The position numbers and the translations under genes were made by a program. From sequence record MG748548: a stretch of 64,000 bases of DNA. The stretch is one strand, 5' to 3'. This document shows positions 31,508 through 59,759 of this stretch, one piece after another. This DNA comes from Escherichia phage EP335. The first letter of the stretch is position 1. Each line of letters opens with the position of its first letter. The notes under the pieces are model-generated. The model did no database searches. It was not told where the DNA came from and was given only the letters and a program-made list of their open reading frames with translations.

Positions 31508-31688
31508 AACCTACATCCATATCATCCTCCTGCCAGACTCGTTTGTTAACACGGTGACTAACCTTGTCAGCTTTAGGGATACGACCAGTACGTTGATCAA
31601 ACAGTTGGTGTTTAATCTTCTGATCTTTACGAGTTTCACGGTTAGGTGAAGTTTCATCATAAGTACGGTAGTTGAATTTATTACCCAT
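31494..31688 (-). CDS. small basic protein
   Basis: internal ATG 31688 with aagga RBS; K/R-rich 64 aa. Confidence 0.3.
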   Translation of the reverse strand: MGNKFNYRTYDETSPNRETRKDQKIKHQLFDQRTGRIPKADKVSHRVNKRVWQEDDMDVGYGEG

Positions 31689-32520
31689 TATCAATATCCT
31701 TATTCCAAATTTTATCAAGCCATGACCACTCGAAGAGGTCTTCTGGTGTTTGACCTACGAATAGGAGACGAGCATTCTCAAGCATCTTCTCTTCCCATTC
31801 TGTATCAAACTTCTTATAATATTCCATTCGCACTATATGATAAAGAGTCCACTTATCACTTACACCTTGTAAAAGGTTGATAGCGGCTTTCTTTCCAACC
31901 CCTTGACGACGGAGTTGTAACTTACCTCCCCACATAACTTCCTCACGTTCGCCACAACCGGGAATGTTATCTGTTCCATCACCAATGAGCATTTGATAAA
32001 AGAAGTTTTGCCAAGCAACCTCATCTGATACATAGTGAGGAGGAACCTCTTTCTGCCTTTCTCCACATGCCCACCGATAATGCCAACCGGGAGTTATCAG
32101 TAAATCTTTGTCTCGTGTACAGATGATGGTGTTCTTGTCAGTTCGCTGCCTTTCTGCTAATGCGTCATCAGCCTCTCTTCCGTAAACATCTATATACTCA
32201 TAATTGTTTTTAATGTAATCACCAACGTTCTGCCAGTGGAAAGGTCTTTCTCCCGGAGGTCGGTTGGCTTTGTATCCTTGCTGCTTTGCTACATCAAAAC
32301 GGAAGTTACCGCCTTCACTGAAATAGAAGACTGTCTTTCGACAGCCAGCGCGAGCAATGATTGTATCAAGTTTGTTTTGAAGTCGTTCAATTAGAAATCC
32401 ATAATCTACTGGTGTACGTCCTGTATCTAGGAAAGGATGCTCCTGAGTCAGAGCACCCACTTCGTATCGGAGAACATCAGCATCCACTAAAGCTACTTCA
32501 GGATACTTAACGTCTTCCAT
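31681..32520 (-). CDS. 5'-3' exonuclease / flap endonuclease (FEN-like)
   Basis: motifs VDADVLRY, YKANR, GREADDALA, DKDLLI, LIGDGTDNIPG. Confidence 0.8.
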   Translation of the reverse strand: MEDVKYPEVALVDADVLRYEVGALTQEHPFLDTGRTPVDYGFLIERLQNKLDTIIARAGCRKTVFYFSEGGNFRFDVAKQQGYKANRPPGERPFHWQNVGDYIKNNYEYIDVYGREADDALAERQRTDKNTIICTRDKDLLITPGWHYRWACGERQKEVPPHYVSDEVAWQNFFYQMLIGDGTDNIPGCGEREEVMWGGKLQLRRQGVGKKAAINLLQGVSDKWTLYHIVRMEYYKKFDTEWEEKMLENARLLFVGQTPEDLFEWSWLDKIWNKDIDNG

Positions 32521-32521
32521 A

Positions 32522-33113
32522 TTACTCCCCTAAAAGTTTACGAACTTCTTTCTTGAATGTTTCATACTCTTCAGGGTATTCAAACCCACACTCTAGCATT
32601 GCGTAGTGAACAACCTTAAGCAAGTCTTGAACCTTGTTCTTATCTTTGTGACGATAAGCATACTTAATCATGTTGCATTGCTGGAAATTGAGCTGAGGGT
32701 TATTTGCATAGAACATACTTAATCATGTTGCATTGCTGGAAATTGAGCTGAGGGTTATTTGCATAGAACTCAATAGGTTGAATTTTCTTAGAGTCAGGGT
32801 CGTAGTGAGCACCACCAACCATAACATCTAGTGCTGGACTTCTTTTGCTGGTTTGTTCAGTTGTATTCTTAAAACTGACCACAGGAACAGAAGAGTAAAC
32901 TATATACTCTTCCCCTACTGGTGGTTTTACTCTTAGTCCACGCATGGCATATTCAATCTTTATGTCAGCGGAACCTGAAGCGACCTCTTCAATAGATTTT
33001 CGATAGCTGTCAATAACTGCTCTTAGCATAGAGATTGTTTTGGTCATATCTTTTACTTTCTCATTCAGTACAACAATCTCTGATTCTTTGAAATCGAACA
33101 AATTCATTTCCAC
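32522..33113 (-). pseudogene. DUF3310-like phage protein split into two ORFs by a frameshifting 55-bp tandem duplication
   Basis: ORFs 32700..33113 and 32522..32716 both encode FYANNPQLNFQQCNMIKY across the two repeat copies; joined reading gives ~178 aa with motif AHY...IQPIEF...NMIKY.YR...DLLK..HY. Confidence 0.5.
32659..32768. repeat. perfect tandem direct repeat, 2 x 55 bp
   Basis: 32659-32713 and 32714-32768 identical (catacttaatcatgttgcattgctggaaattgagctgagggttatttgcatagaa). Confidence 0.85.
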
Positions 33114-33496
33114 TCTCCAATGATTTCCATATCAAATTTATCTCCTTTCTTCGTAAGGAGTATTGCCGGTTTATCTTTACTTTTCATGTACTCAAACATA
33201 TGCAGAGAGCCTCTTGACTCTCCATCCCAGAAGACTATCGCTGAGTCAGCATACTCTCCCATGTCTACGTTTCGAAGGATACCAGCTTTCTTTCCTAAGG
33301 TTGTCCAAGAAGGGATAAACCTTTTAATACCAAGGCCGTTATGCTTAGCAATAACCTCTCCATGAGAGTCTGGCCCTTTTGCTCCCCCTGATACAACTTC
33401 AGTGAAGAGCTTAGGTATCTCTTTCGGGAGTAAATCCCACATCTGAATAAAAGAAGGCCAGTCAATAGACCGGCTTCCTGCTATAATCACTTTCAT
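33104..33496 (-). CDS. Rossmann-fold SLOG/LOG-like protein (putative nucleotide-binding)
   Basis: MKVIIAGSR..., VVSGGAKGPD..., FWDGESRGS pattern resembles SLOG/LOG-type folds; assignment from motif memory only. Confidence 0.35.
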   Translation of the reverse strand: MKVIIAGSRSIDWPSFIQMWDLLPKEIPKLFTEVVSGGAKGPDSHGEVIAKHNGLGIKRFIPSWTTLGKKAGILRNVDMGEYADSAIVFWDGESRGSLHMFEYMKSKDKPAILLTKKGDKFDMEIIGEWK

Positions 33497-36728: not shown

Positions 36729-36929
36729 TTAGATTGTGCAACCATCACACACGAAATCCCCACTCAGGGATTCTTGTAATAAACGACTTTGTTCATCAGA
36801 GACTAACTGATTAACAACTTTCTGTAACTCTAACAGTTGATCAAAATCTATATATCCCCCTTCCTCAAGAACGTTAGTTTCAATCCCCCATAAAGGTGAT
36901 GGCATGTTTCTGCTTGCATTAAAAATCAT
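36729..36929 (-). CDS. hypothetical protein
   Basis: track ORF starts at TTG 36950; internal ATG 36929 has aaggaaa RBS. Confidence 0.35.
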   Translation of the reverse strand: MIFNASRNMPSPLWGIETNVLEEGGYIDFDQLLELQKVVNQLVSDEQSRLLQESLSGDFVCDGCTI

Positions 36930-51194: not shown

Positions 51195-51404
51195 TTACTT
51201 ATAAAAACTTCGAATCATGTCCCAGATTTCTTCCTGCTGGACCCTAAAGAAAGCTAAACGTGTCGATGTACGTTCAATAAATTCTTCACTATGCTTTTCT
51301 CTATCTAGCATACTGACAAGCTTTTCATATTTATTGATCTTCCATCGCATTTTTAAATAGTCTGATTCCAGTGTCCTTAACCTCTGACACTCAATCAAAC
51401 CCAT
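51195..51404 (-). CDS. hypothetical protein
   Basis: ORF track 69 aa. Confidence 0.4.
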   Translation of the reverse strand: MGLIECQRLRTLESDYLKMRWKINKYEKLVSMLDREKHSEEFIERTSTRLAFFRVQQEEIWDMIRSFYK

Positions 51405-51823
51405 TAGTTATCCTCTGACAGATAAAGAGACCAGTCACCAGATTCAACCAGCTCATCCTGCTCTTCATCGATGTGATAAATCCAAGCAGTGATAGTTTCA
51501 CCACTATCCATTACAACTTCGATAGGAGTACGCTTATAGAAAGTGTGTGGGTTGTCATTACCGCGATGCCCTTCCAGCATATCATAAGCACCCTCAACAC
51601 CATCCATATCCGTCTTAAATACTTCAACACGAACAGGTTTACCGTTGCTGTTGTGTTCCAGAGAAACACTTGGGAAGTATGAACCACCGTAGCGGTACAA
51701 GTTGTAGTTTTCTTTAGTGAAGCCTTCACCAATTGATTCAGCACCTGCACGAGCATTCACTCGGAAGTTGGCCTGACCAGTGCGAAGAGAACCGTAAGTT
51801 GCTACATAAATTACTTCTGACAT
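51404..51823 (-). CDS. gamma-glutamyl cyclotransferase-like (AIG2/GGCT family) protein
   Basis: N-terminal YVATYGSLRTG motif typical of AIG2/GGCT fold. Confidence 0.5.
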   Translation of the reverse strand: MSEVIYVATYGSLRTGQANFRVNARAGAESIGEGFTKENYNLYRYGGSYFPSVSLEHNSNGKPVRVEVFKTDMDGVEGAYDMLEGHRGNDNPHTFYKRTPIEVVMDSGETITAWIYHIDEEQDELVESGDWSLYLSEDN

Positions 51824-51824
51824 T

Positions 51825-52034
51825 TTAAATACCTTTCCAATCGTTCATGATTTTTTCAATATAAGCACACTGTTGATCAGTGGCACCTGTTACAAATATT
51901 TCACACCCTAACTGTTCACAGAAAGGATTGAGTATTAAGATTTGAGATTTACCATATGAGTGATGCTCTCTGTAAATAACACAACCAGCATCCCAAACTG
52001 AATCTAATGCCTTACTTAACCTTTTGTGTTTCAT
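51825..52034 (-). CDS. hypothetical protein
   Basis: ORF track 69 aa. Confidence 0.35.
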   Translation of the reverse strand: MKHKRLSKALDSVWDAGCVIYREHHSYGKSQILILNPFCEQLGCEIFVTGATDQQCAYIEKIMNDWKGI

Positions 52035-52090
52035 ACAGTCTCCAGTTAATCCGAACTAGCCTCCTCTTTCGAAGAAGCTAGAGCAGATTG

Positions 52091-52273
52091 CTATGCTGTG
52101 AAGTTTTTGATTACACCGCAAATAACATCTGTTTCAAACGTACCCACCAGAACATCGTCTCGGTAGAAATTAATCGCTTTACCATCTCGGTTAAAGTGAT
52201 CTGCTTCAATGAGCATAGATTGTACCTGACCATCTGGGGTGGAGGTTCGAAAGATGACGTTATACTGACTCAT
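52091..52273 (-). CDS. hypothetical protein
   Basis: ORF track 60 aa. Confidence 0.3.
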   Translation of the reverse strand: MSQYNVIFRTSTPDGQVQSMLIEADHFNRDGKAINFYRDDVLVGTFETDVICGVIKNFTA

Positions 52274-52512
52274 AAAGAAGTTACTCCCTTATCTTCTTGA
52301 GCGATAGAGATGATACGACTCACACACTGCATTGAGTACTCATCACCACGCTTTAGGAACGTTACGATAGCAGAGAATTGATTACCAATCATCCGCTCAT
52401 TTGTAATACCGAACTCTTTGCAGAGTTCTTTCAGTTTGCTACGAGAACCAATAATCAGAGGTTCTTTTTCTTCAGTCATTCCACGACTAATCAAATCTTC
52501 AATAGACAACAT
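52270..52512 (-). CDS. hypothetical protein
   Basis: ORF track 80 aa. Confidence 0.35.
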   Translation of the reverse strand: MLSIEDLISRGMTEEKEPLIIGSRSKLKELCKEFGITNERMIGNQFSAIVTFLKRGDEYSMQCVSRIISIAQEDKGVTSL

Positions 52513-52535
52513 AATTCCATTCCTTGGGGGTTTAA

Positions 52536-53753
52536 TTAAAAGTTTACTGCTTCACCATCAACGGTAGTTACTGATGCAAGACGACGAACACGGCCAATCT
52601 GTTCACGACTGATTGGAGTATTCCAACCAGAGCGATAGAAGTTGCGACCACAGAAGAACACAACAACATTAGAAGCAATCCGTCCGTAGTTACGATCAGG
52701 GTGATTGATGTTAGCAAGATAATAACCACGGGTCAAGTTTGCATTTTCGTTGATATGCCGAGCATTTGGTGCAGTTGTTTCAGCTTGCATCATTTCAGGA
52801 ACATCTTCTACGATAGGCTCAACCGTAGGTTCATCACCAGCTAAAGCAAAGTTCTCATCAGCAGCCTCTTCTGCATCATCTTCCAGCTCCACAGTTTCCT
52901 GAATAACTGGCAGAGGGTATGCTACACGATACTCAGGGTTTTGACCACGGAGAGATTCAACATACTGCAAGAAGTTGTGCTGGTAAGTTTCCAGAGTTGT
53001 ACCAGTCAGGCCCGGAGCGGTATTAACTTCTAACACCCACGCTTCCTCACCTTTACTGATAAGATCAACAGCACCAAAGTTAAGACCGAGTGCTTGTACT
53101 GCTTTGTGCGCTTGAATTAGAACCTGATCAGGTGGTGAATCATTAAAAGAGTTGGAATAAACCCAACCAGTGTGGTGATTACGAACATCTTCACGATAGT
53201 CAGGGTTATCACGATACCCATTACGACGAATCTTCTTCTGGACGTAAGTAATAACACCTTCAAAAACATGCACACGCCATTCACGACGTGGACCAGTGAT
53301 TGCTTTTGTATACAGAGGAGCCTCAGCAACACCCTCACGAGGAAGACGAACAGTGATGCCTTCACCAGAGTGACCATTAAGTACACCACGTTCGTAAACA
53401 ATACTGTTTTGGTTCCAGTTAAGTGCTTCATCTCGGTTAGTGGTATACTCAACAGTCTTGACTTCCGCAAGACGCATGGCATTGAAAGCTGCAACCTTGT
53501 TAGCCGCACGATTCAATGCTGCTACGTTGTTCAGAACCGTTGCACCTTCGAAGAAGGATTCTTGATAACGACGGTTTCCATAGTTGATAATCACGTCACC
53601 AGAACGAGCACGGAATCGGCTGGTTCCATCAGACAGAAGAGCCATTGCGTTGGCATTGATTCGGTTGTCACGGAGATGTTGATTCAAGCTGGATACCAGA
53701 GCATTAACAGAATCAGAAGGGCCATAAGGGAGAACACGGATACGAGTAGTCAT
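52536..53753 (-). CDS. ATP-grasp family ligase with ~130-aa C-terminal extension
   Basis: ATP-grasp hallmark WVLEVNTAPGLTG near residue 260; acidic linker then extra C-terminal domain. Confidence 0.55.
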   Translation of the reverse strand: MTTRIRVLPYGPSDSVNALVSSLNQHLRDNRINANAMALLSDGTSRFRARSGDVIINYGNRRYQESFFEGATVLNNVAALNRAANKVAAFNAMRLAEVKTVEYTTNRDEALNWNQNSIVYERGVLNGHSGEGITVRLPREGVAEAPLYTKAITGPRREWRVHVFEGVITYVQKKIRRNGYRDNPDYREDVRNHHTGWVYSNSFNDSPPDQVLIQAHKAVQALGLNFGAVDLISKGEEAWVLEVNTAPGLTGTTLETYQHNFLQYVESLRGQNPEYRVAYPLPVIQETVELEDDAEEAADENFALAGDEPTVEPIVEDVPEMMQAETTAPNARHINENANLTRGYYLANINHPDRNYGRIASNVVVFFCGRNFYRSGWNTPISREQIGRVRRLASVTTVDGEAVNF

Positions 53754-53755
53754 TT

Positions 53756-53989
53756 TTAGATACCTTTAAGTTTAAGAATTTCGTTGCGAGTACGTTGGAT
53801 ACGTTCTTCAAGAGTATGATAATCAAAGATGCACATCTCTTCTGCTTCATCAGAAGGTGCATCCATTAAACCCATAGCAATCGGATACACCTTTCGCTGT
53901 TCCGTTGTCATGTCCTGTAGCCGGAGTCGTTGATACTCCAGCAGGGTAATTTTCGGCTTGTTAGTTTCCTTGCTTGACATGAGGCTCAA
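53756..53989 (-). CDS. hypothetical protein
   Basis: ORF track 77 aa. Confidence 0.35.
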   Translation of the reverse strand: MSLMSSKETNKPKITLLEYQRLRLQDMTTEQRKVYPIAMGLMDAPSDEAEEMCIFDYHTLEERIQRTRNEILKLKGI

Positions 53990-54194
53990 CCTTGATACCT
54001 TTCAGTTTCACATAGTCAGCCAGCACGTTGTTAATAACTGTTGGGAAAGGAATCTCAACAGGTGCATTAACTAACCCACCAATACCCTCTTGCATCCACT
54101 TCTGGATTGCACGAAGGTTATCACATCCTGTGCTTGTCATTGGAATACGGCGAGTGGTTACAACGTTATCCAACATCATCTTACGAATTTCCAT
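53961..54194 (-). CDS. hypothetical protein
   Basis: ORF track 77 aa. Confidence 0.35.
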   Translation of the reverse strand: MEIRKMMLDNVVTTRRIPMTSTGCDNLRAIQKWMQEGIGGLVNAPVEIPFPTVINNVLADYVKLKGIKVEPHVKQGN

Positions 54195-54204
54195 AATACA
54201 CCTC

Positions 54205-56223
54205 TTAATTATGACCTTTACAGTGCACTGAATCGCACACCACTTGATTGGTATTGTTTAGTGTGCAGAGTTCTGCATCACGCCACGGAATCTTTTTAAA
54301 ACAGACTGCACAAAACCCAAGAGTAGACCAGAGGGCTTTTGTGAAGGTTGCTGATCGGTTTCCATCGAAGGACGCAACTGTTCTGGTAATTGAGACTTTT
54401 GACTCACGAAAGGTTTCCGCTGCTGGAGCGGGTTCCTCCTTTGGGGTAGTCACTGCAATAGCATAAACACCACCCCAACGCTTCTCAATGTAAGCACCGA
54501 ACACATCTTCCAGAGTGATTTCACTCTTACGTTTGGTTGAGGATTCCATGACAATCATGTTGTCCAGAATCTTTTGATCAACACGAAGAGCTACTTCAGG
54601 ACGTCGAGCACTTGTTGTATCAACATACTTGGTCCAAACATAACCCTCTTTCAGAGTGACTTGAGTTGCTTGCTTCTTTGCTTTATTAGCACAGATTTTA
54701 CAAACATCGTCACCACGAAGTTTACTGAACTCTTCATCAAATTCAAAGTCAGACTTCACTTCGCCGCACACTGAACAAACGCCGATAGGAATCTCATCCT
54801 CTTCAACGTCTTCCACTTGCTTCTGGATAGAATCAAAACAAGCTTTATGCCAATATGCTTGGTATGCGAAGATCGCACTTGGTGCTTCTTTCCAGTCAAT
54901 GTGCTTATCACATCCACCACAATCACCGTGGGAATGGGCTTCCCAGAACTTACGAGTGATAGTCACCCCATTCTTGCTGACAAAACTATCCTCTGCATCA
55001 AAAGGGATATCATCATCGAAATCAGCTGTAGTGCTTTCCGGCTCCTTTTTCGACAAGTCAAAGAAGTGACCAGAGATCAACACCAAACGAATCATGCTAT
55101 TAACTTCAGAGATACAGCCAACCGTACCACGGTAAACCATATGCTTGTTCTTAAGAGCAGCTTCGTAATCAGTTTGCAGGATGTTATGAACATCACCCTC
55201 AATATACTCTTGAGCTTTGTCATCATAAATATAACCAACCATCTTACCGCGATCGGTATCTTTATAACAAACAAACTCGTGAGGAATAATATCAACCTGC
55301 ATATCACGACGGACATCAACACCTTTGTCAGAGGCGATCTTGTTTTGTTTCAAGATTGCTTCACGACGACGTACATCACCTGCGGTTACGCCGGGCTTTC
55401 TTTGCTCGTCGCTGTTCCCGTTTACGTAACTTTTTGTCACGCTTGAGTGATTGTTGCTGTAGCTGTTCGAGTAATAACTTCCCCAACGCGTTGCTACCGT
55501 AAAAACCGGGAGTTCATGTACGACCTCCTCTACCAAAGTCATCTTGTTGTCAGAAACATCAAAGATGTACTCTGTACCGACTTTACACTCAAAGTGCTCA
55601 TCAATTCGGTTCTTGTGGCTCTTAGAACGCTGAAGAATCCACATTAGCATCGCTTCTTCTGAAGCACCAAACCATGAAGTTCCCAGACGGGCCAGATGGA
55701 AAGGACGTTCATCGTTACGAATGATGTGAAGACGGTTATCACTTGCATCATGCCAGATTAGAGTGAATGCACCATCCAACTTCTGAATAGTCTCTGCTGC
55801 ACCAATCTTGTTAATAGAGTGGCAGATGTTCTCACTATCAACCTCAAAAGCCTTACTGTCAGGCAGAAGGTCTTGATCAACTAAGGTTCCGTTATGAACC
55901 AGAGTAATATTTCCGTGAGAGAATGGGTGAGCGTTACGTGAGTTAATAGCGCCTTTCGTAGCATGTCGGCTGTGACCAACAATCCATGAAGGAGGCACTG
56001 TGTAATTAGTAAGGCCAGTTGTCAGCTCGGTGTACTCTTTCTGTAACATGAAAGCATAGGAAGGCAGTGCTTCTTTGTAAGAGAACACAGATCTTTCGCT
56101 TTTACGCTGACCGAAAATACCAGTTGAGTGTTGACCACGAAATACACCAGCATAAAGAAGCTGGTTGTAAATATCTAAGTCATAACTTGAGAGGCTTCCA
56201 CCTGCTAATACGATACCACAAAT
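54205..56223 (-). CDS. class-II (Ntn) glutamine amidotransferase domain protein with Cys-rich C-terminal domain; probable non-canonical ATT start
   Basis: in-frame upstream sequence K-I-CGIVLAGG...HSRHATKG...NAHPF...VHNG; Cys codon 56218-56220 preceded by ATT with aggtgga 7 nt upstream; track start is GTG 56088. Confidence 0.6.
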   Translation of the reverse strand: MCGIVLAGGSLSSYDLDIYNQLLYAGVFRGQHSTGIFGQRKSERSVFSYKEALPSYAFMLQKEYTELTTGLTNYTVPPSWIVGHSRHATKGAINSRNAHPFSHGNITLVHNGTLVDQDLLPDSKAFEVDSENICHSINKIGAAETIQKLDGAFTLIWHDASDNRLHIIRNDERPFHLARLGTSWFGASEEAMLMWILQRSKSHKNRIDEHFECKVGTEYIFDVSDNKMTLVEEVVHELPVFTVATRWGSYYSNSYSNNHSSVTKSYVNGNSDEQRKPGVTAGDVRRREAILKQNKIASDKGVDVRRDMQVDIIPHEFVCYKDTDRGKMVGYIYDDKAQEYIEGDVHNILQTDYEAALKNKHMVYRGTVGCISEVNSMIRLVLISGHFFDLSKKEPESTTADFDDDIPFDAEDSFVSKNGVTITRKFWEAHSHGDCGGCDKHIDWKEAPSAIFAYQAYWHKACFDSIQKQVEDVEEDEIPIGVCSVCGEVKSDFEFDEEFSKLRGDDVCKICANKAKKQATQVTLKEGYVWTKYVDTTSARRPEVALRVDQKILDNMIVMESSTKRKSEITLEDVFGAYIEKRWGGVYAIAVTTPKEEPAPAAETFRESKVSITRTVASFDGNRSATFTKALWSTLGFCAVCFKKIPWRDAELCTLNNTNQVVCDSVHCKGHN

Positions 56224-56297
56224 TTTCTAATCCACCTGAAGGGTAAACCCTTTCATCTAATTAACCTTTAGTTGTGCCCCTTTCGAGGCACCCATTG

Positions 56298-57398
56298 TTA
56301 CAGCAGTCGTTCTAACTGAATTTCCAAGTGATCTGGAATATATTCAGTGACGTTGTTATCGGAGACGCCAGATTCACGCATCATGTTGAGCATGCTACGA
56401 ATCTGTCCTTCTGTTGCTTCACGAGTTTCACTAATCTCTGTTTCATACAGAGCCATGATCTCGTTATGAACATCTTGAGCATTACCACGGACATATCCGA
56501 GGAAGCCATAGAAGTCAGACATATCACGAAGGGATACAACTACCGACCCACTATTATCAAGAGTTTGTAAACGAATACGCCCAACCTGACGGACAGAACG
56601 ATTACGACAGAACAGGATATCACGAGCCAGACGATAACCACTATCAAGATCTTCGTGTCTTGGGGTGTAGTCTAGAGGTAGGTGAGGGAGCATAGGGTCA
56701 AAACGAACCCTGTTAAGCATCTCAACAAACTCTTCATTGTCCATCTCTGCATTTTCAACTGCTAATTTCTTAAGAACCAAGAAGCGGTTTACCAGATTTA
56801 ACAGCTGACCTTTCTTCCACTTAGGCTCTGAGATACGGAACTCAACAGAACCGAACTGAGCCAGAGGAAGTAGGTTAAGTGATGTGTACTTATCCCAACG
56901 ATCAACAATGTGTCGGAAGAAGTTCTCACCTTCGTAGTTAAATGCTTCAGAAGCATTCATTACTTGAGCCTGCACTACCGCAAAAGCAGGACAGAAATTA
57001 CTACGGTAACGGTGATAACCAGAGCACTTAAACATCAATGCTTCATAGAAAGTCCACCCAAGGATAACTTTCTTAACGATATTGCTATCAGCATCTCGCA
57101 TATCCATATGAACGTGAGTGGAACAGCGCCAAGTCCCTTCTGCTTCGGACTCCATCACTGCCTCACTCAGATTGTTGATAGCGTCAAACAGTTCTACACC
57201 ATTGTAAGGGCGAGAACAGACCATTTCACATCCGTTGCGAAGCGAGCCATCCTCTGTACATTCCCACATATCTGCTTCGATATGATCGTCACCTTCAAGC
57301 TCCAGCTCAATACCAATACCGCATTGGAATGCGATACTCGGATGTGCTTCACTCAGACGATTACTACGGTATCCAAAAGCTTGCGCTACAGTTGTCAT
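56298..57398 (-). CDS. amidoligase-like (glutamine-synthetase-fold COOH-NH2 ligase) candidate
   Basis: N-terminal G.E.E strand motif FQCGIGIELELEG and His/Glu-rich core; assignment tentative. Confidence 0.4.
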   Translation of the reverse strand: MTTVAQAFGYRSNRLSEAHPSIAFQCGIGIELELEGDDHIEADMWECTEDGSLRNGCEMVCSRPYNGVELFDAINNLSEAVMESEAEGTWRCSTHVHMDMRDADSNIVKKVILGWTFYEALMFKCSGYHRYRSNFCPAFAVVQAQVMNASEAFNYEGENFFRHIVDRWDKYTSLNLLPLAQFGSVEFRISEPKWKKGQLLNLVNRFLVLKKLAVENAEMDNEEFVEMLNRVRFDPMLPHLPLDYTPRHEDLDSGYRLARDILFCRNRSVRQVGRIRLQTLDNSGSVVVSLRDMSDFYGFLGYVRGNAQDVHNEIMALYETEISETREATEGQIRSMLNMMRESGVSDNNVTEYIPDHLEIQLERLL

Positions 57399-58009
57399 AA
57401 CGACTCCACTAACTCCACAGTGTATTGGTTAAAATCACTTTGAATATGCTTGAACACATCAAGCAGTTGTACGGTCTGACGACCACGGCTGTCATGTCCA
57501 GCACCGAGAAGCACGCGACCAACGTGTGCTCCTTTATAATAAACAAGACCATCGGAAGGGTTGATGAAGATAAAGCGAGTCAACAAACCTTCAAAAGATG
57601 GATTAAACAGGTTATAAACCATCTCACCGGAGATGTTACGACCAAGAGAAGTTACGCCACGGAGTTTGTTACCCATCAACCCCTTAGCTCGCTGACGAAC
57701 TGGATTGATATGGGTCCAACTTACCATGTTACGACCATGTTGAAGATAACCAACATCAGGGGATTCCAGAATCAGGTTAGGGTTGAACACTCCAATCTGA
57801 ACTGTTGTACGGTTAAACCCTGAGTCTGTTTTAACCCAACGCTCTGCTTCGAACATCAAAGCCATCTCTGCTTCGTGAGAGAAGTCATCACGAGAGAACT
57901 CGCCTTGTTGGAATACGTTCATAACAAACAATGGGATGTTTAAGTTCCCACGTCTTTCAGCAATCCATGTCCCACAATAGTAATGAGAGAAGTCAGTTAC
58001 TAAGCTCAC
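57395..58009 (-). CDS. hypothetical protein in amidoligase cluster
   Basis: ORF track 204 aa, GTG start; 4-nt overlap with upstream gene. Confidence 0.45.
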   Translation of the reverse strand: MSLVTDFSHYYCGTWIAERRGNLNIPLFVMNVFQQGEFSRDDFSHEAEMALMFEAERWVKTDSGFNRTTVQIGVFNPNLILESPDVGYLQHGRNMVSWTHINPVRQRAKGLMGNKLRGVTSLGRNISGEMVYNLFNPSFEGLLTRFIFINPSDGLVYYKGAHVGRVLLGAGHDSRGRQTVQLLDVFKHIQSDFNQYTVELVESL

Positions 58010-58018
58010 GATAACCCC

Positions 58019-58906
58019 TTACGCTACCTGTAAACGTTTCAAGAACACATCTGCTTCACGAACATCGTTGGTGTTGATGATCTGGTGCAGCTTTTCAATC
58101 GGAAGGCGAGAGTGGAGGCCCATCAAGAACTCCATGTCGCTGTTTTGTACAACCTTGTCAACTTGATCATACACAAATTGACGATCTTCTTTCTTGCCAA
58201 TCCAGAAGTTTGACAGAGAGCGATACTCAATGCCATAAGGTTTGTAACGGATTGCGGATGCTTTACCGTATAGCTCTTTACGACGAGCATCACCGTCCAT
58301 CAGAACAGCAGGCAATGACAGGAAGTAATCACACAGAACGCCCAGCATCATCTGAACCTTCTTATTCACATCCAGAGAGCCAGTGACACCGATATGCACA
58401 TGACCGCCTGCTGTACGCAAGCCCTTGTTCTCTGAAGTTGGGGAAGCATTCTTTTGACCAGTGAATGCGTTGAAGTCTGGAGTACAACCAAACACGAAAG
58501 CGGACGGATGGAATGATTCCAATTCTTCTTTAGAGAAGATATGAGAACTTACACCCAGAGCCGCTTCCATGTCCTGTTTCTTCAGAACTTCGTTGGTAAG
58601 ATCAATACCACGCTGAACGTTGTCATTAAACGCTTCAAAACCTTGTTGTGGGTTGATATCAAATTCAGCAAGAACGTTGTCTTCTTGGAGACGAACATCC
58701 TTAGCCAGATCGATTTTATTTTCTTTAGAACAGCCCAGCTTTCCAGCAACAGAGGTGATGATGCCAGAAGAAGTACGAACAAACATTTCAGGGTCAGTGC
58801 CGATTAAAAAGATGCGCTTAGTCATTGTAGTATTCCACCAATTCTTTAAAGAGGGATGTGATTGTTTCTTTGTTGCTCTCTGTACTAGAGTCACAACGAC
58901 TTTCAA
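58019..58906 (-). CDS. hypothetical protein in amidoligase cluster (possible second ligase-like enzyme)
   Basis: ORF track 295 aa; internal start MTKRIFLIGTDPEMF plausible. Confidence 0.45.
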   Translation of the reverse strand: MKVVVTLVQRATKKQSHPSLKNWWNTTMTKRIFLIGTDPEMFVRTSSGIITSVAGKLGCSKENKIDLAKDVRLQEDNVLAEFDINPQQGFEAFNDNVQRGIDLTNEVLKKQDMEAALGVSSHIFSKEELESFHPSAFVFGCTPDFNAFTGQKNASPTSENKGLRTAGGHVHIGVTGSLDVNKKVQMMLGVLCDYFLSLPAVLMDGDARRKELYGKASAIRYKPYGIEYRSLSNFWIGKKEDRQFVYDQVDKVVQNSDMEFLMGLHSRLPIEKLHQIINTNDVREADVFLKRLQVA

Positions 58907-59747
58907 TACGTTCTAAGAAACCATTTACACTGATGTTAGAAATCTTTTCATCAAGAGATGAACGTTTCCAACCAGTGCTCATAGACCAAACTCTCAAAAA
59001 GGTACTCATTGAAGAGTACATCTCTGCGTTTTGGTTTCGACGACGAGCAATACGACGAAGGGCTGCACGGTCATGGTTTCGGATATACCCTGATGTGTTA
59101 TCACCTTCTCCAACTTTGTTTTGCAACCAAACATCGGTTGAAAACTCATCTGTATTGCAAATGATCGGAAGAAATGCAAATGCTGGTAAGTCGTGCGGTA
59201 AGTAGATAGATGTTGATTCATCAGTGGAATCATTAACTCTATCAAAGTTAAGCTCCCCAAAGAAATCCTTACTTACCCCAGCAAGAGCTAGAGCTAATCC
59301 AACACGACGACGGAATAGCCATTCTTCTCTATCATCAACTCCCTCTGAAAGAAAATCCATAGATTCATACTCGCAATCGAGATAACTACGGAAAGTCATT
59401 AGTCCTGTAAAAACTTTATCTGCTGCGTGTTCACGAAGATCAACCTCTACACTATTAGCAGAAGTGATTGTGAACATATCTTTGTACATAGAACAGGAGT
59501 TTAGTACATCAGCAGTATCCAACAAATGAGACTCAATCTCATCCATGTTGCAGTGAGGCCAGTAGTTAATCTTACCCATGTGTGCTGTGAAGTTATCTAA
59601 GCTGGTTCGATTACTCAGGCCATTAATATCACGAGTGCTGAAGTTGTGCATAGAGTTGTGGATACCGAAACAGACTCGGCTCGTAAAACTCTGCTCACCC
59701 ACCATATCACTAACTTCTACAGGAGCTAATGTTGTGGAAATTGCCAT
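58818..59747 (-). CDS. hypothetical protein in amidoligase cluster
   Basis: ORF track 309 aa. Confidence 0.45.
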   Translation of the reverse strand: MAISTTLAPVEVSDMVGEQSFTSRVCFGIHNSMHNFSTRDINGLSNRTSLDNFTAHMGKINYWPHCNMDEIESHLLDTADVLNSCSMYKDMFTITSANSVEVDLREHAADKVFTGLMTFRSYLDCEYESMDFLSEGVDDREEWLFRRRVGLALALAGVSKDFFGELNFDRVNDSTDESTSIYLPHDLPAFAFLPIICNTDEFSTDVWLQNKVGEGDNTSGYIRNHDRAALRRIARRRNQNAEMYSSMSTFLRVWSMSTGWKRSSLDEKISNISVNGFLERIESRCDSSTESNKETITSLFKELVEYYND

Positions 59748-59759
59748 TGTCTTTAACCT

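Follow-up and report, generated by a model that had tools for sequence, protein, structure and literature searches.

A perfect 55-bp tandem duplication that splits the DUF3310 gene of Escherichia phage EP335 is very probably an untrimmed assembler overlap

The window analysed here is the whole stretch of 64,000 nucleotides taken from the sequence record MG748548 of Escherichia phage EP335, the namesake of the species Nieuwekanaalvirus EP335, whose proteins have RefSeq accessions. About its middle a DUF3310 gene lies within a tightly packed minus-strand operon for replication and nucleotide metabolism, the gene order being 5'-3' exonuclease, DUF3310 gene, SLOG-like gene and then a phage sigma factor (Table 1). 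Relatives of the SLOG/YAcAr-like protein are annotated as 'GTP-binding domain', and its gene overlaps the start of the DUF3310 gene, as is usual in operons packed this tightly. The exonuclease gene served as a handle for fetching independent assemblies of the region. Elsewhere in the window, at ~51,400-59,750 on the minus strand (Logan piece L008, 4007-12350), a series of genes has Pfam matches to GGACT, GATase_6/7 (a protein of 627 aa) and a COOH-NH2 ligase-like family (268 aa), downstream of which, on the same strand at ~44-47.5 kb, are genes for ThyX, dCTP deaminase, a ferritin-like protein and thioredoxin; from these matches, the genes from GGACT to thioredoxin resemble a gene set for nucleotide or DNA modification.

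Table 1. Features of the DUF3310 locus in the 64,000-nt window of phage EP335
Feature	Position	Strand	Evidence or remark
5'-3' exonuclease, 279 aa, downstream neighbour of the DUF3310 gene	31681..32520	-	translation
DUF3310 gene as deposited, 592 nt with the extra 55	32522..33113	-	restored translation, Pfam, PHROG
C-terminal fragment ORF, 64 aa, second half of the DUF3310 domain	32522..32716	-	Pfam DUF3310, 24.1 bits
Copy 1 of the 55-bp unit	32659..32713	.	identical to 32714-32768
N-terminal fragment ORF, 137 aa from GTG	32700..33113	-	translation; last residues, VLCK, out of frame
Copy 2 of the 55-bp unit	32714..32768	.	identical to copy 1
SLOG/YAcAr-like protein, 130 aa, upstream neighbour	33104..33496	-	weak Pfam match, PF10686

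A sequence-only reading of this DNA had described a perfect tandem duplication of 55 bp inside the DUF3310 gene, and its identity was borne out both by direct string comparison and by Tandem Repeats Finder (period 55, 2.0 copies, 100% matches, score 222). The unit is CATACTTAATCATGTTGCATTGCTGGAAATTGAGCTGAGGGTTATTTGCATAGAA, and its two copies are directly adjacent, with a start-to-start spacing of 55 and without a single mismatch between them. Beyond the copies the periodicity continues on the right only, for a single base (C at 32769), which leaves a junction microhomology of 1 bp. This pair is the only perfect direct repeat of at least 25 nt in the 64-kb window, and simple arithmetic puts the probability that a perfect 55-mer repeat occurs by chance at ~64,000 x 4^-55. 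The 21-mer across the boundary between the copies is TTGCATAGAACATACTTAATC, and the flank-to-flank paths expected of a site with one copy are GATAAGCATACTTAATC and TGCATAGAACTCAATAGG.

As 55 is not divisible by 3, the duplication makes the DUF3310 gene look frameshifted. The two overlapping minus-strand ORFs into which the duplication had been said to divide it are indeed present, and both of them encode FYANNPQLNFQQCNMIKY across the repeat. The GenBank and RefSeq annotation of the N-terminal fragment begins at the ATG at 33107 and yields 135 aa, a sequence with an exact match in AVZ45112.1 / YP_010672697.1 of Escherichia phage EP335 (76,622-bp sequence). Upon removal of one copy the anticipated gene of ~178 aa is recovered as an uninterrupted ORF of 537 nt, which encodes 178 aa from a GTG or 176 aa from an ATG two codons further downstream. 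The DUF3310-like label proved equally sound, the restored protein matching Pfam DUF3310 (PF11753) above the gathering score over residues 102-153 (34.4 bits, cutoff 24, E 2.3e-8), and the N-terminal fragment alone gave no match to this family. Pfam also gave a sub-threshold bZIP_1 match in the N-terminal half (E 0.049), which was set aside as reflecting coiled-coil composition. Over its full length the restored protein also matches phrog_26149, 'deoxynucleoside monophosphate kinase' (E 1e-106), and its C-terminal part matches phrog_236 and phrog_1689, both annotated 'nucleotide kinase'. On these family matches the 176/178-aa protein is a putative nucleotide kinase of the T7 gp1.7 type, its dNMP kinase activity being likewise putative and standing at the level of the annotation of phrog_236 and phrog_1689.

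Exact look-up of the possible products separated the deposited form from the restored one. None of the 137-aa, 64-aa and 178-aa (GTG-start) forms is on record, and both ATG-start forms are: the truncated protein of 135 aa was recorded only from NCBI and UniRef, and the restored protein of 176 aa came solely from a Logan assembly, in which its contig measures 76,597 bp.

Comparison with related genomes, which had been proposed as a search for single-copy versions, gave a uniform picture. One relative is KBNP1711, a phiEco32-like podovirus (Gordonclarkvirinae, Nieuwekanaalvirus), which is 96% identical in this region and carries the 55-mer once. A match to the region was found in 47 phage records and, among those listed, every matched span was 55 bp shorter than the query span, so that all of them are single-copy; variation in the copy number of the 55-mer was not seen among the relatives and independent assemblies compared. 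In the cluster of proteins at 90% identity, of which 15 of 20 members were listed, all those listed but that of EP335 are 176, 122 or 95 aa long. Eight aligned members of this cluster have an intact and nearly invariant C-terminus, the VLCK ending occurring only in the EP335 deposit, and the reading frame at the site of the 55-mer is intact in all the related phages listed or aligned as well as in all the metagenome proteins aligned. The copy-copy junction was also looked for in the viral contigs of IMG/VR, the genome contigs of GTDB and the metagenome contigs of JGI, with 0 matches.

The same comparisons brought to light several differences in gene content among the relatives. Two natural forms of 95 aa (P0007 and P0014), found on up to 5 contigs, the longest of 69.6 kb, consist of the C-terminal DUF3310 half without the N-terminal ~80 residues, and the N-terminal coiled-coil-like half thus appears to be an optional module. 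In phage Bas89 (KarlSchell_Bas89, L002 2408-3016) the DUF3310 slot holds an unrelated P-loop dNMP kinase of 202 aa (phrog_139), both flanks of the slot being ~96% identical to the window; this arrangement is a non-orthologous displacement and indirectly supports a kinase role of the DUF3310 protein. An extra HNH_3 homing-endonuclease-like gene, with no counterpart in EP335 (window ~36,731-36,737), is present in a close relative, 98-99% identical, assembled from Logan ERR15003292 (L003 5372-5845), and an additional HNH gene is found also in Bas89 (L002 275-778), which looks like turnover of mobile HNH genes within this phage group.

A further comparison is that with the Logan contig SRR8505896_131, pieces of which (L004, L007, L008 and L011) were fetched by means of neighbouring proteins of the window. 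This contig is 76,597 bp long and its ends overlap by exactly 30 bases, i.e. k-1 for k=31; it therefore closes into a circle of 76,567 bp, 55 fewer than the deposited 76,622 bp. With the circle rotated and one copy removed from the window, there were 0 mismatches over the 63,698 of 63,945 positions covered by the fetched pieces, the other 247 positions lying outside them. L004 (17,073 bases) and L007 (11,830 bases) agree with the window at 100% identity, apart from the single 55-mer in L004, where two BLAST pieces of 100% identity overlap on the 55-mer, as they would on one copy, and the fetched piece covering the site does not contain the 60-nt sequence across the copy-copy junction. The portion of the circle outside the window measures 12,622 bp, the same as 76,622 minus 64,000, and it is consistent with this remainder that position 1 of the window would be position 1 of the deposited record.

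Since 0 mismatches over ~63.7 kb are to be set against a divergence from the window of 0.3-1.6% in L005 and L003, the public contigs next in similarity, the comparison indicates that SRR8505896 derives from the same phage. By the same token it is very probably the read set behind the deposited record. A literature search for this run number found nothing, and its link to SRP182885/PRJNA517780, the accessions given in the EP335 genome announcement, would follow from the 100% identity over ~63.7 kb. The sequence-only reading had looked to raw reads with one copy of the 55-mer as the mark of an artefact; this single copy is seen here indirectly, through the Logan re-assembly, and it is the unbroken k=31 circle, rather than read counts, that suggests that junction k-mers are absent from the reads or rare among them.

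The length of the repeat unit points to the origin of the second copy. For reads shorter than 150 nt the default k values of SPAdes are 21, 33 and 55, and when this assembler outputs a circle in linear form, the contig closes with the same k bases with which it opened; the repeat unit of 55 bp thus has exactly the length of the default largest k. According to its genome announcement, EP335 was sequenced with Illumina HiSeq 2500 paired-end reads and assembled with SPAdes 3.10 at a coverage of 1,664x, giving a genome of 76,622 bp; the announcement describes the reads as '>50 nucleotides', names no k values and mentions 15 contigs and SSPACE scaffolding (PMC6473133). It is likely from these data that SPAdes was run with k up to 55 for EP335. 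There is a published precedent for a phage contig from default SPAdes whose ends overlapped by '55 bp' and were trimmed before the sequence was re-opened (PMC8483715), and in another report the contig ends of a circular plasmid also overlapped by 55 bp.

Traces of a re-opening are found in the deposited record as well. The first three letters of the window are an ATG that aligns to where the first gene (gp001) of KBNP1711 begins; on the Logan circle this ATG is internal and in frame, 27 nt from the start of a called 54-aa gene (L011 4144-4308). Because the starting ATG sits inside continuous sequence of the Logan circle, its position suggests a manual re-opening of the record at the beginning of an ORF, possibly inside a longer one. 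Phages of the phiEco32 type have a direct terminal repeat. The announcement (PMC6473133) names the 76,622-bp sequence a linear genome; the reads assemble, in Logan, as a circle of 76,567 bp.

Taking these results together, we conclude with high confidence that the second copy is an artefact of assembly and finishing, namely an untrimmed SPAdes end overlap that was moved to the inside of the sequence by rotation. The EP335 genome assembles as a circle, which SPAdes, with 55 as its largest k, would have put out as a linear contig beginning and ending in an identical stretch of 55 bases. The depositors would next have moved the start of the sequence to the ATG of their first ORF, the old contig ends being joined head to tail with neither overlap trimmed, so as to create an internal perfect tandem repeat of 55 bp; the order of the rotating and the joining steps could be as given here. 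Copy 1 would represent one end of the original SPAdes contig and copy 2 the other, one of the two being spurious. Such a repeat would land in whichever gene the original contig break had hit, and it is in this way that the DUF3310 gene would have come to appear frameshifted. The real phage would accordingly possess an intact DUF3310 protein of 176 aa and a circular unit genome of 76,567 bp instead of 76,622 bp. An assembly artefact was one of three possibilities that had been put forward for this locus, and it is the one favoured by a single-copy Logan assembly whose circle is exactly 55 bp shorter and by the coincidence of the repeat length with the default largest k of SPAdes.

The other two possibilities, a recent inactivating mutation and a reversible switch of the slippage type, did not find support, given that an independent assembly of the same phage has one copy and that the repeat length equals the k of the assembler; all the readings in which the duplication is real are, even when taken together, improbable. 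A duplication fixed in the EP335 stock, which would have arisen by replication slippage or illegitimate recombination and recently inactivated the DUF3310 gene, is in itself very unlikely. Phage genomes do acquire tandem duplications, the deposited sequence does carry two copies, and the replacement of the DUF3310 gene by an unrelated kinase in some relatives raises the prospect that the gene may be dispensable or replaceable. These points are outweighed by the independent assembly, which is identical to the deposited sequence at all other compared bases, single-copy, unbroken as a circle and 55 bp shorter, and by the failure to find the junction in any other genome or metagenome searched. Slippage as the source of a real duplication was rejected on three grounds: the junction offers a microhomology of just 1 bp, the length of the unit is that of the assembler's k, and the circle is shorter by exactly this length.

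It would be very unlikely too, perhaps extremely so, that the duplication is a real allele carried by part of the EP335 population, toggling the gp1.7-like kinase gene off and on, and that its match to k is fortuitous. A perfect tandem repeat is a substrate for RecA-independent slippage, by which a copy can be gained or lost, and the Logan pipeline, which relies on a de Bruijn graph with k=31, could prune the rare junction k-mers of a minority allele. However, this reading demands a double coincidence, since not only the unit length would have to equal the SPAdes k of 55 by chance but the sole difference in length from the independent circle would also have to be exactly the 55-bp unit. Neither a two-copy allele nor a shorter precursor repeat is seen in any relative, and two copies of a 55-mer do not correspond to the known design of contingency loci, which are built of many short units.

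Very unlikely as well, and rejected here, is that the two-copy deposit is correct and the Logan assembly collapsed the repeat, as de Bruijn assemblers with a short k may do with repeats longer than k under some settings of graph simplification: a fixed 55-bp duplication at ~1,600x would add 30 junction 31-mers, well covered, which should form a loop in the graph and break the contig instead of leaving a closed circle, and the single-copy frame is the very frame conserved, residue by residue, in the eight aligned relatives, so that an arbitrary collapse would leave unexplained why all relatives are single-copy.

If the untrimmed end overlap is accepted as the origin of the second copy, the 55-bp duplication very probably has no biological significance and its value is one of curation. 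The reference record MG748548 would be 55 bp too long, with one gene split, and the corrected EP335 unit genome would be of 76,567 bp, with the DUF3310 protein intact at 176 aa. The truncated product of 135 aa has meanwhile spread into nr, RefSeq and UniRef. More generally, when a phage or plasmid record contains an internal, perfect tandem duplication whose length is exactly 55, 77, 99 or 127 bp, a rotated SPAdes overlap that was left untrimmed is the first explanation to suspect.

The restored protein, the repeat as a would-be switch and the repeat as an assembler product each invite comparison with a known system. One report (PMC9339283, citing Tran et al. 2008, 2012, 2014) connects DUF3310 with T7 gp1.7 and its nucleotide kinase activity, and the restored EP335 protein resembles gp1.7 in matching DUF3310 and the PHROG families of nucleotide kinases and dNMP kinases; nevertheless, only the C-terminal ~50-90 residues are common to both, the N-terminal 80 coiled-coil-like residues being specific to the phage group of EP335. 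Like slipped-strand contingency loci, the EP335 repeat lies in a coding region, and with a length not divisible by 3 it would turn the gene off. Such loci, however, use many short units that vary in copy number among relatives or reads, whereas EP335 has two 55-mers at a site that is invariant in its relatives, the second copy being absent from the independent assembly. The closest likeness is to the end overlap of circular SPAdes contigs (55, 77, 99 or 127 bp), with which the EP335 repeat has in common the identity of the copies, a length equal to the default largest k for short reads, the circular assembly and an independent assembly that is shorter by exactly the repeat length. It differs in its place: this overlap normally occupies the ends of a record and is taken there for a direct terminal repeat, whereas in EP335 it lies internally after rotation and mimics a frameshift mutation.
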